Positions 3,964 through 58,101 of a DNA stretch of 64,000 nucleotides are shown piece by piece. This DNA comes from a phage. The notes under the pieces are model-generated. The model was given only the letters and a program-made list of their open reading frames with translations. It did not search any database and was not told the DNA's origin. How positions within the stretch are numbered: position 1 is the first letter of the stretch; each line of letters starts with the position of its first letter. The stretch is taken from sequence record PZ452606.1; one strand, given 5' to 3'. The translations under genes and the position numbers were made by a program.

Positions 3964-5166
<1,203 letters not shown>

Positions 5167-17495: not shown

Positions 17496-18149
17496 TTAAT
17501 ACTTGCAAGATTTCACAGTTTCAATAAAAACACTTTTAGCTTTCTGTGAATCAATATTTAAAATTTTTCTATAAGCCTTTAACTTTATAGAATAATTATT
17601 CCAGACTAAATTATCAGTCTGTTCATCATGTTTATCAATTATATTTAAAAACGAATCAAGCAAGATAAACGTCTCAAACGAAATTATGTTCGATTGCAGA
17701 AGTTTAAAAATATAACTTGACTGAACCTTTGGATTATATTCAAAGATTTCTTTAAAAGCAGAAACTTCAACTTTTTTACTAAAATAGTAAATATTGCGAA
17801 TATCTTCTTCAAACTTAAATTTAATTTGCTTTAAGCGTCCGATATATTCACGATAAAACACAAGTGCATCAGCGTCAGAGATGTCACCAATCCAAGCATC
17901 TTGGTTAGCAACCAAATTGCTTATAAAGATTAAAGCAAGTTCCTTTAATTTATATTTTTCTGATAACTTCTGGAAAAAATACTTATCCCTTCGCTTTTGA
18001 TAAGCGGCATCAGACACCCGCATGCACCAATTATACTTAATAACATCATACTTTCCATTCATATGCTGTTTTATCATTAAGTATAATTTATAAACTGATT
18101 TACCATCAATGTATCTTTCACCACCAGCAGGCATGCGGAGTTTAATCAT
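17496..18149 (-). CDS. 59: helicase loader gp59
   Basis: 217 aa, T4 gp59 length and position. Confidence 0.85.
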   Translation of the reverse strand: MIKLRMPAGGERYIDGKSVYKLYLMIKQHMNGKYDVIKYNWCMRVSDAAYQKRRDKYFFQKLSEKYKLKELALIFISNLVANQDAWIGDISDADALVFYREYIGRLKQIKFKFEEDIRNIYYFSKKVEVSAFKEIFEYNPKVQSSYIFKLLQSNIISFETFILLDSFLNIIDKHDEQTDNLVWNNYSIKLKAYRKILNIDSQKAKSVFIETVKSCKY

Positions 18150-18484
18150 AGCAGAAAATCTAATGTATTAGTTTTTTCACAACGAACAACAGAAGGACGC
18201 AAAAGATTTTCGTCAATAGCTTCTGACTGAATTTTTTCAATTATACCCGAAGGAATAAATTTAGCAAATTGAGTTTCAGGAATAGAGTTTTCTTCCAAGA
18301 ATGCTGTCGTAGCTTCAAGATAACTCATTCCAAACTCTTCTACCATTTTTTCAATGATAAATCCATTTTCTTGACGATCAAGAAGCTTTGCAATTTCATC
18401 CTTTTCTTTCTTAAGGGAAAGTTCTTTTTCTGAAAGACCGGTCTCATCGACCGGACGAATATCATTTAGAGAAAACTGTGTCAT
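18146..18484 (-). CDS. 33: late transcription accessory protein gp33
   Basis: 112 aa from ATG at 18484 (track start is TTG); matches T4 gp33 from memory. Confidence 0.85.
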   Translation of the reverse strand: MTQFSLNDIRPVDETGLSEKELSLKKEKDEIAKLLDRQENGFIIEKMVEEFGMSYLEATTAFLEENSIPETQFAKFIPSGIIEKIQSEAIDENLLRPSVVRCEKTNTLDFLL

Positions 18485-18731
18485 AAAGTTCAACTACCTC
18501 TTCAGTTTCAGCTTCAAACACATCACGGTTATCTTTATGATACAAAGCTAACAGACGATTAAACATCTTGCCATCAACACCAAGTTCATCTTTGGCACGA
18601 ATTCGAATATCTTTAATCAGTTCATTATAACCGGAAATTTTCAGTTTATGATCAGATGCTTCTTTAATAAATTTAGCCAAGTCTTCGCCATGGATAGCTT
18701 CATCAAATTCAACCATTTCTTTTTTAGCCAT
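18462..18731 (-). CDS. dsbA: dsDNA-binding protein DsbA
   Basis: 89 aa between 33 and rnh as in T4. Confidence 0.75.
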   Translation of the reverse strand: MAKKEMVEFDEAIHGEDLAKFIKEASDHKLKISGYNELIKDIRIRAKDELGVDGKMFNRLLALYHKDNRDVFEAETEEVVELYDTVFSK

Positions 18732-56657: not shown

Positions 56658-56822
56658 TTACTCTTCTTTTTCTTTAGATTCCTCTTTTTTCTTTTTAGGA
56701 ATCTGTTCAGGGCCTTTATTTACTACAGCGCCTGACGTTGTTCCAGTAGAGATATTTTCAGGATTACCACCTGAATCTCCAGCGACCATATCTTCTTTGA
56801 TAAATTCTTTATATGTTTTCAT
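56658..56822 (-). CDS. small hypothetical protein
   Basis: 54 aa read by eye (MKTYKEFIKEDMVAGDSGG...) between the 118-aa ORF and gene 61. Confidence 0.35.
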   Translation of the reverse strand: MKTYKEFIKEDMVAGDSGGNPENISTGTTSGAVVNKGPEQIPKKKKEESKEKEE

Positions 56823-56868
56823 ATTAACCTCTATTCATAAAAGCATTAAAAATTTGGTCATCAATAGA
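56820..56868. repeat. 49-nt direct repeat, copy A
   Basis: 48/49 identical to 57178-57226. Confidence 0.8.
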
Positions 56869-57180
56869 TGGAATAGCAACCTTTTCGGCATCATTTAGCA
56901 AATCATTAATTTCATCAGATAGCATAACACATGTGCCTTTATTTCCTGTAATTGTTACTGCGCAATTACGAACGTTTTCTTTATCAAATTTTAGGTTAAT
57001 ATTTTCGTAGTGAAAATCCTTTAATGCCGAATATATCTTTAAAATGAAATTGTCTTTTACTACAATAAACCCAACTTCACTATTAAAACGTGGTTCATGG
57101 AAACTGTAATAAACCTTTTCATCTATGAAATCGTATGAAATTTTTTCCATTTTTAAATATGAAAATTCAGAACTATACAT
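56824..57180 (-). CDS. hypothetical protein, truncated paralog of the 208-aa neighbour
   Basis: 118 aa; last 14 residues SIDDQIFNAFMNR identical to neighbour via a 49-nt repeat. Confidence 0.55.
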   Translation of the reverse strand: MYSSEFSYLKMEKISYDFIDEKVYYSFHEPRFNSEVGFIVVKDNFILKIYSALKDFHYENINLKFDKENVRNCAVTITGNKGTCVMLSDEINDLLNDAEKVAIPSIDDQIFNAFMNRG

Positions 57181-57226
57181 ATTAATCTCTATTCATAAAA
57201 GCATTAAAAATTTGGTCATCAATAGA
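57178..57226. repeat. 49-nt direct repeat, copy B
   Basis: 48/49 identical to 56820-56868. Confidence 0.8.
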
Positions 57227-57808
57227 AACATTTACTTTAGACTGTTTTTCAGATGGCAATTCATATCCACATATTACAATTTTATGATCAATATCAAAAT
57301 ACACAGAAGCAATATGATTAATGATATTTTCAGTGAAGTCTAAATCGACATCAATATCTTTTTGACCACAGCCCAAAGGATAAATAATGCGAGTAATTCG
57401 ATTATCTTTAACAAATATTCCACCGACATACTCTGTACTGCGTTTAAAGTCTACACGCCGACGAAATGAAAAATATTCAGGCTCTTTATGAGCTCGGCTC
57501 ATAGGACACAACGAATAACTAGAATAAGAGATGTCAAATCCTACGCCTTCGATATGAGCCAAAGTGTCATGATTAAACCAATTATAATCGTACGCCAAAT
57601 CCATTAGATTATAATATGTAAAAGGCACCGGATTAACATCATTAGTCACAAGCATGTAATTAGCAACTGCTATAATTTCATTGTTTTTAACGAATACAAA
57701 CCGTGATTGATGCGAATGACCTGGACCCGCGTTTTCACGATTAATGATATAACACTGGGCACCTTTATATTTGTATGTATCTTTGCACTTGTGCATTTGA
57801 TAGAGCAT
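57182..57808 (-). CDS. hypothetical protein
   Basis: 208 aa; C-terminal half similar to the 118-aa ORF. Confidence 0.55.
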   Translation of the reverse strand: MLYQMHKCKDTYKYKGAQCYIINRENAGPGHSHQSRFVFVKNNEIIAVANYMLVTNDVNPVPFTYYNLMDLAYDYNWFNHDTLAHIEGVGFDISYSSYSLCPMSRAHKEPEYFSFRRRVDFKRSTEYVGGIFVKDNRITRIIYPLGCGQKDIDVDLDFTENIINHIASVYFDIDHKIVICGYELPSEKQSKVNVSIDDQIFNAFMNRD

Positions 57809-58101
57809 TATTCACCTACCACTTCAGCGATGATATTTTTGTTATTAAAGTTTTTATCGCAATACAGAACATAATTATACTGCATTACACCACCAGACTT
57901 AAGTTGTTTTTGCACTTCAGCTTTCATTTCAGGACGATCACGCTCAACGATATTCATAATATCCGCTTCAATTTGAGTTTCAACTTCAGTCTGATCCGCA
58001 GTCATAGACCATTCGCACAAATCTTTATCATAACCTGCCATAGCAGGCTGAGCAGCGCAAGAAGCTAAAGCAAAAATTGTAGCAAAGATAAATTTTTTCA
58101 T
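57808..58101 (-). CDS. sp: Spackle periplasmic protein (superinfection exclusion)
   Basis: 97 aa with signal peptide; matches T4 Sp from memory. Confidence 0.9.
   Translation of the reverse strand: MKKFIFATIFALASCAAQPAMAGYDKDLCEWSMTADQTEVETQIEADIMNIVERDRPEMKAEVQKQLKSGGVMQYNYVLYCDKNFNNKNIIAEVVGE

Follow-up and report, generated by a model that had tools for sequence, protein, structure and literature searches.

This work concerns two adjacent minus-strand genes in a 64,000-nt stretch of phage DNA (record PZ452606.1; the whole stretch is called the window), one encoding 208 amino acids (aa) and the other 118 aa, whose 3' ends share a 49-nt direct repeat. The long gene is identified by its full-length profile match as gene 61.2, adfA, which encodes the anti-DarT factor A. 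As a whole, the data make it likely that the locus holds adfA next to an old single-domain relative, that selection on a C-terminal peptide keeps the tails of both genes alike, and that the repeat formed by these tails is the junction of an insertion/deletion (indel). The window derives from phage RB18, a Tequatrovirus (100% identity to MH553563 over 1801 nt). The genes are found in the minus-strand stretch between helicase gene 41 and primase gene 61, in the order 41, dmd, 61.4, sp, 61.2, an extra open reading frame (ORF), 61.1 and 61. This stretch is regarded as a possible 'anti-TA island' (TA, toxin-antitoxin) with dmd, tifA and adfA (Srikant et al., 2022, PMC9391042), and the gene pair is located in its sp-to-61 part.

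The direct repeat at the 3' ends of both genes

The adfA gene extends from 57182 to 57808 on the minus strand and is listed as gp61.2 in the RB18 record; its product terminates in ...SIDDQIFNAFMNRD. It is followed by the 118-aa ORF (56824–57180, minus strand), known as RB32ORF033c, a relative of the C-terminal AdfA half that terminates in ...SIDDQIFNAFMNRG. A repeat finder locates the two minus-strand copies of the repeat at 56820–56868 (copy 1) and 57178–57226 (copy 2), with 48 of 49 identical positions (98%) and a spacing of 358 nt. Exactly two copies are present in the window, and none of 100 shuffles gave a match. In this respect, the original prediction of a 49-nt repeat that includes the stop codon and the last 14 codons of each gene is borne out.

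On the coding strand, the repeat reads TCT ATT GAT GAC CAA ATT TTT AAT GCT TTT ATG AAT AGA G(G/A)T TAA T ATG. Each copy thus comprises 14 terminal codons and the TAA of one gene and, after a single spacer base, the start codon of the gene that follows. In copy 1, these are codons 56827–56868 of the 118-aa ORF, the TAA at 56824–56826, the spacer and the start codon of gene 61.1 at 56820–56822. In copy 2, they are codons 57185–57226 of adfA, the TAA at 57182–57184, the spacer and the start codon of the 118-aa ORF at 57178–57180. The Shine-Dalgarno (SD) sequence GAGG is located within the last two codons of each tail. The only mismatch (C at 56828, T at 57186) results in codon GAT instead of GGT in copy 2. 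This means that the last residue is Gly in the 118-aa protein and Asp in the 208-aa protein.

The short gene and its kinship to AdfA

The 208-aa protein matches Pfam family PF23813 (AdfA) with an E-value of 9e-136 and 450.4 bits (cutoff 27); residues 1–207 are aligned with positions 1–210 of the 211 profile positions. As described by Johannesman et al. (2025, PMC11825919), AdfA is small, has no recognisable domain and inhibits the DNA ADP-ribosyltransferase toxin DarT1, apparently through binding to the toxin. In the RB18 record, the 118-aa ORF bears the note 'some similarity to gp61.2; RB32ORF033c'. It forms its own PHROG, phrog_4122, and is assigned to PF23813 in the precomputed Pfam domains. 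With the tail included, both proteins share 34% identity over 105 aa (BLASTP E 9e-8; HHalign E 7e-13). Upon removal of the tail, the BLASTP E-value is 0.013 over 65 aa, and HHalign yields E 1.6e-3 with a probability of 16%. Against PF23813, the short protein scores 34.1 bits (cutoff 27) at profile positions 113–211 only. This match depends on the tail, as the protein minus its last 14 residues does not match PF23813 at E up to 10. Outside the tail, both proteins have the core motif E..Y.SF...R...VG.I.VKDN.I in common.

The AlphaFold model of the 118-aa protein has a mean predicted local distance difference test score (pLDDT) of 83, above 90 in the core, and consists of a five-stranded beta-meander followed by helices. 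The same beta-meander-plus-helix order is seen in the model of the C-terminal AdfA half (mean pLDDT 72). A Foldseek search of viral models with the 118-aa model found a 118-aa orthologue-like protein (TM-score 0.80) and a 212-aa phage protein (E 1.9e-5), which is taken as an AdfA-size relative on its length alone. It also found a 157-aa Yersinia phage protein (E 4e-6), assigned by length to a 145-aa family introduced below, and VR25 gp038 (E 1.7e-4), which itself belongs to that family. The 118-aa protein comprises one beta5-alpha domain and the tail and does not have the two-domain architecture of the 208- to 216-aa AdfA proteins. The two genes are paralogues, although the sequence evidence outside the tail is thin. 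Hence, the paralogy of the original prediction holds for the complete proteins, both in BLASTP and in the common fold of the models, but is much weaker once the tail is left out.

For the short ORF, the ratio of non-synonymous to synonymous substitution (dN/dS) is 0.15–0.35 in comparison with its T2, Sf21 and VR25 orthologues, which identifies it as a genuine gene that evolves under purifying selection. Orthologues with 45–50% identity are present in Gaprivervirus and other T4-like genera at the same position after sp. Therefore, the split between adfA and the short gene predates these genera and is old. The synonymous sites in the RB18 gene bodies are saturated (proportion of differing sites, pS, 0.73), and 51% of the non-synonymous sites differ. 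The original prediction implied a duplicated pair whose remainder has diverged, which is misleading in view of the orthologues in other genera and the old split. The short gene probably encodes a second toxin-neutralising factor with a different specificity.

An invariant C-terminal tail in a small family

The superfamily, which is restricted to T-even phages, comprises three groups: AdfA proper with 208, 210 or 216 aa, single-domain proteins of 117–125 aa and the 145-aa family (phrog_8539). All relatives found, including both RB18 proteins, end in (S/A/T)(I/V/T)DDQIFNAFM(N/K)R(G/D), and DDQIFNAFM is invariant in every member of the three subfamilies across several genera. Apart from the tail, just five core positions are invariant in the family alignment. 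A family member with the tail is encoded directly after sp in every T4-like genus examined. In the more distant genera, this is a single 120- to 125-aa protein whose core is barely alignable. A degenerate DNA pattern for DDQIFNAFM detected tail-bearing genes only in contigs of T4-like phages. An exhaustive profile search of 1.84 billion representative proteins returned only ten representatives, and a search for distant relatives among 5.8 billion proteins returned 5 and 16 clusters. The family is genuinely small, so that the alignments underlying the AlphaFold models are shallow.

Among 17 distinct tail sequences, seven columns vary within the DDQIFNAFM codons, and all of them are third positions. 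None of the 18 first and second positions varies. Such purely synonymous variation between genera indicates strong selection on the peptide and not on the nucleic acid. A conserved interaction tail, as originally suggested, is upheld with respect to conservation, since the peptide is invariant throughout the superfamily and its DNA varies only synonymously; the interaction is what we infer.

Irrespective of the gene that follows, most members have a compact junction for translational coupling (GAGGTTAATATG), made up of the last two codons, the stop codon and the next ATG. At least five different genes were found downstream of this conserved SD/stop/start junction. The distant T4-like contig L040 retains ...FMNRG with a different junction. 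Thus, the junction is dispensable for the peptide. In L040 (around 4370–4390), AGAGGCTAA AGAGGCTAA stands in tandem between the tail and the next ATG, a small duplication of the unit of last codons plus stop.

Presence and absence of the two genes in Tequatroviruses

Compared to RB18, T4 lacks exactly 358 bp, i.e. one repeat unit, and is otherwise collinear. In the RB18/T4 alignment, this indel unit (56869–57226) comprises one repeat copy and the 309-bp unique part of the 118-aa ORF, where the register can be set anywhere inside the repeat. T4 AdfA ends in ...NRG, the ending of the short gene in RB18. Three arrangements, roughly equal in size, were found in sequenced Tequatroviruses: adfA only (e.g. 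T4 and ECML-134), both genes (e.g. RB18 and Sf21) and the short gene only (e.g. T2, KarlGJung and sb2, with the order sp, short gene, 61.1 and without adfA). In roughly 480–540 Tequatrovirus-like records, the BLAST coverage classes contain 321 genomes for adfA-only plus two-gene, 281–299 for two-gene plus short-gene-only and at least 154 for two-gene. The derived estimates of ~165 adfA-only, ~155 two-gene and 130–145 short-gene-only genomes were obtained by subtraction of these classes and not by genome-by-genome reading. Junction queries could not count the arrangements directly, because BLAST pieces were joined across the indel.

In genomes without adfA, among them T2, KarlGJung and sb2, the DNA between sp and the short gene still holds a remnant of 12 nt, T(T/G)AGAGGTTAGT, as seen in the five genomes L003 (T2), L018, L023, L024 (sb2) and L031. 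The sb2 version is ATG AGA GGT TAG, in which the start codon of adfA is joined to the final two codons of that gene. This tail-junction remnant upstream of the short gene points to a deletion of adfA from a two-gene ancestor. The variant TTAGT is common to all five genomes, which suggests a single ancestral adfA deletion. At the T2-type deletion breakpoint, no clean microhomology could be resolved.

The arrangements are not monophyletic on the adfA sequence. The adfA genes of two adfA-only genomes (L009 and L010) differ by 13–18 nt from those of the two-gene genomes RB18 and L034, and by 33 nt from that of T4, which is also adfA-only. Either loss or gain occurred repeatedly, or the locus recombines freely between lineages; both would fit an active repeat.

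Just upstream of the repeat, a dimorphic patch was observed (56869–56890, residues ~97–104 of the 118-aa protein) that reads either AEKVAIP or AENITAP/TENITAP. Both forms, EKVAI and ENITA, occur in two-gene as well as in short-gene-only genomes.

The polymorphism could also be explained by a short gene that is a mobile cassette: adfA-only genomes would have received it from another phage during co-infection, through recombination in the conserved tail. Then, the two-gene state would be derived and the repeat an insertion footprint, and no conversion within a genome would have occurred. The repeat brackets the unit exactly, and five or more different genes are located downstream of the tail, as would be expected if it marked the boundary of a shared module. 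The two patch alleles are common to two-gene and short-gene-only genomes, and T-even phages recombine readily upon co-infection (PMC11825919). However, an insertion needs homology on both sides, and its donor would have to carry a tail upstream of the cassette beforehand, which amounts to the two-gene or an equivalent arrangement. Furthermore, the upstream tail remnant in short-gene-only genomes is explained more simply by adfA deletion from a two-gene ancestor. We consider such a cassette rather unlikely, and it overlaps with the explanation of a peptide-selected tail whose repeat serves as indel junction rather than excluding it.

Identity of the tail DNA within genomes

In RB18, both tails differ at none of 7.0 synonymous sites, compared to 73% of those in the gene bodies, and the similarity between the genes breaks off sharply ahead of the first tail codon. 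In contrast, 5.0 of 7.7 synonymous sites are different between RB18 and VR25 when orthologous tails are compared. In VR25, the tails of the 145-aa gene and the short gene differ from each other at CAA/CAG, TTT/TTC and AAG/AAA, whereas in L011, a related Gaprivervirus-like contig, both tails have CAG, TTC and AAG. The tails of the 216-aa AdfA alleles, which are ~70% identical to RB18 AdfA at the protein level, show four or five deviations from the Tequatrovirus tail. Tail DNA groups by genome or genus and not by gene family, which is a mark of gene conversion or recombination between copies. As judged from the sequences, within-genome tail identity points to such conversion or recombination acting on top of peptide selection. 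The recent gene conversion mentioned in the original prediction is thereby supported.

It could be argued that selection on the peptide combined with codon bias suffices for nucleotide identity, without any recombination between the copies. The tail is composed mostly of preferred AT-rich codons, and the tails of either gene in Tequatroviruses all have nearly the same sequence. Nevertheless, the chance that 13 shared residues acquired identical codons independently, calculated with the codon usage of the window, is 2.3e-4. GAC, AGA and TCT are minority or non-dominant codons and yet common to both tails. The divergent tails of the 216-aa alleles and the mosaic co-variation seen in L011 versus VR25 also contradict this view, which we regard as quite improbable.

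Cis-acting content of the repeat

The repeat could have been retained as a cis-acting RNA or DNA element, for instance a regulatory RNA, a PeSL-type cassette or a protein-binding site, with the peptide as a by-product. Its last 10 nt form the conserved SD/stop/start junction, and a hairpin can be drawn whose 3' arm overlaps the SD sequence. But this hairpin is weak (-5.6 kcal/mol, z -0.96), and the fold z-scores of the repeat range from -0.5 to -1.0. No Rfam match was obtained for the repeat. None of 10 hairpin pairs covaries among the 17 tails, where 79.4% of the cells are paired versus 78.8% in shuffles. A scan of the coding strand of the repeat revealed neither a sigma-70-like promoter nor a terminator. 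Moreover, synonymous positions vary freely between genera while the peptide is constant, and L040 keeps the peptide with another junction. An RNA element was rejected, since Rfam, folding z-scores and covariation counting were all negative, and the scan of the repeat disposes of a PeSL-type promoter/terminator. Hence, a cis-acting element in this sense is very unlikely, and the cis-acting RNA element of the original prediction finds no support apart from the SD/stop/start junction, which is the only cis-acting content of the repeat.

A recent partial tandem duplication of the adfA 3' half, in which the 49 nt are the sole part that has not yet diverged, would account for the tandem arrangement in the same orientation and for a similarity limited to the C-terminal half of AdfA, but it can hardly be maintained and was rejected in view of the saturated bodies with 51% non-synonymous differences, the older split documented by orthologues in other genera and the abrupt end of identity at the first tail codon.

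Proposed mechanism and role of the tail

We propose that peptide selection would keep the tail DNA of both copies similar, and that this similarity would allow homologous recombination or gene conversion between the copies in one genome, which periodically makes them identical. The resulting 49-bp repeat would then be the place where crossovers add or remove the short gene. As for the tail, it may be a short amphipathic helix on a variable flexible linker, which probably docks a variable beta-meander core, in AdfA the one with the DarT-specificity residue, onto a partner or surface common to the family.

In the AlphaFold models, the tail helix comprises residues 106–115 of the short protein and 196–205 of AdfA. 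Linker and tail are the least confident parts (pLDDT 56–62), compared to a core above 90 in the 118-aa protein, and AdfA displays the same pattern. Across the family alignment, the linker varies in length and sequence. A segment that is best conserved, least confidently placed and attached to a variable tether is typical of a docking peptide. Based on these models, a tethered docking helix is the likeliest role of the tail.

Several points weigh against this explanation. The arrangement counts derive from BLAST coverage classes and not from reading each genome. The polyphyly of adfA could reflect recombination between lineages instead of repeated deletion, and the two-gene state may be ancestral with subsequent deletions or may have arisen by insertions. 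In the two-gene genomes Sf21, L026 and L027, the tails differ at one or two synonymous sites, which shows that conversion is episodic and not continuous. The homology of the 118-aa protein to AdfA outside the tail is weak at the sequence level. Finally, the tail could equally pack on its own core, given models built on shallow alignments (14–18 sequences).

It is conceivable, though on balance doubtful, that the invariant helix delivers interchangeable, fast-evolving toxin-binding domains (AdfA, the 118-aa and the 145-aa proteins) to one common partner. Under this assumption, the 118-aa protein may act on its own as an inhibitor, directed against a variant of DarT or a different toxin, and the tail DNA may be a recombination handle for module swaps between co-infecting phages. 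A phage described as devoid of adfA, T2 for example, would then nevertheless possess one member of this system.

Comparison with known systems

The 208-aa ORF is AdfA itself (61.2 of T4 and RB69, PF23813), with a full-length match, the same position after sp and His at the specificity site. The 118-aa ORF resembles AdfA in the C-terminal-domain motif VGxIxVKDNxI, in fold order and in the tail. It differs from AdfA in that it has one domain instead of two, a Cys at the position of His/Arg165 and a tail-dependent Pfam score. T2 has been described as a phage that naturally lacks an adfA homologue (PMC11825919). In contrast to this description, it carries a short AdfA relative.

PeSLs are short conserved direct repeats at gene boundaries of a variable region that flank an optional ORF and recombine to yield indel differences between close relatives (PMC2839356). 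The 49-nt repeat corresponds to them in so far as direct repeats flank an ORF that is present or absent among close relatives. However, PeSLs are intergenic and contain a strong sigma-70-like promoter and a terminator stem-loop, whereas the 49-nt repeat is mostly coding, with the addition of the SD/stop/start junction. As it comprises neither promoter nor terminator, it is not a PeSL cassette of T4-type genomes (PMC2839356).

A second parallel is tifA (61.4) in the same island, whose copy number and content were altered by recombination between short homologies (Srikant et al., 2022, PMC9391042). These were laboratory amplifications and deletions at 2- to 10-bp homologies, whereas the RB18-type repeat is 49 bp long and maintained by peptide selection, and the polymorphism is natural and widespread.

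A third comparison concerns the sliding clamp. T4 gp33, gp43 and gp55 are otherwise unrelated or diverged proteins that carry a short conserved hydrophobic C-terminal peptide on a flexible linker. Their clamp-binding motif is of the (S/T)LDFL(F/L) type. The window encodes a 115-aa ORF (18146–18493, minus strand) that ends in TLDFLL, a T4-type clamp-binding tail, and was used for comparison with the AdfA tail. From gene order, it is taken to be gp33, as it is located just upstream of a 217-aa ORF taken as gp59. In this motif comparison, the AdfA tail DDQIFNAFMNRG does not fit the LDFL type. A clamp-binding function of the family tail is without support, as this tail is unlike the TLDFLL of gp33 in the window.

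Variation in adfA and neighbouring genes

Binding of DarT1 by RB69 AdfA is decided by a single residue, R164H (PMC11825919). At the corresponding position, RB18 AdfA has His165 in ...TENIINHIASVYF, a residue whose meaning is taken from the same study. This residue aligns with Cys72 of the 118-aa protein (56965–56967). The specificity position (57314–57316) is naturally polymorphic: 208-aa alleles encode His, several of those with 210 aa encode Asn, and the 216-aa ones encode either Arg or His.

Within Tequatroviruses, adfA is a mosaic gene with two allele classes of 208 aa and 210 aa. Between these classes, the first ~55 codons (57643–57808) are too diverged for blastn, whereas the other 416 nt are 84–90% identical.

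An alignment of the N-terminal with the C-terminal half of AdfA yielded an HHalign E-value of 5.6e-4 with a probability of 30%. Both halves contain FVxVK(N/D)NxI and the order five strands plus helix, and the same order of elements is shared by both halves in the AlphaFold model. An internal duplication may be considered, for which these data are only suggestive.

The upstream neighbour of adfA is sp (spackle; 57808–58101, minus strand). In T2 (L003, NC_054931), one additional A is present in a run of A residues close to the 3' end of the spackle gene (1194–1472), and the encoded protein has the C-terminus ...NKNNHR (92 aa) rather than ...NKNIIAEVVGE (97 aa), which is due to either a sequencing error or a real frameshift.

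The downstream gene 61.1 (56658–56822, minus strand, 54 aa) has its start codon and SD sequence inside repeat copy 1. The gp61.1 protein matches the C-terminal 46 residues of the 156-aa family phrog_2086 (E 2.6e-16). As only the C-terminal part is matched, 61.1 is the end of a longer protein in some phages.

Implications for the AdfA family

AdfA is one of few known phage inhibitors of the DarTG defence, and its mechanism is understood only in part. The identity of the long gene as adfA was already known, and the similarity of the short gene to 61.2 had been flagged by the GenBank annotators. The original prediction had missed both that the long gene is adfA and that the repeat is the boundary of a common presence/absence polymorphism. 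A limited search of the AdfA/DarTG literature found no mention of RB32ORF033c or of AdfA-related single-domain proteins. Likewise, in a limited literature search, no account was found of a tail that is invariant throughout the family, of the concerted evolution of the tail DNA or of a polymorphism with three states. The results do not overturn current understanding and are not surprising in kind, but are useful for work on DarTG counter-defence.

AdfA is part of a slightly wider family with single-domain members. In about a third of the sequenced T4-like coliphages, such a member takes the place of adfA, and in roughly another third both are present. Conservation within the family is highest in the C-terminal peptide and not in the toxin-specificity region, which singles this peptide out for deletion and pull-down work. 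In nature, the locus provides a clean case of peptide selection that keeps a recombination substrate alive. Anti-defence genes at this locus can thereby be gained or lost precisely and without damage to their neighbours.

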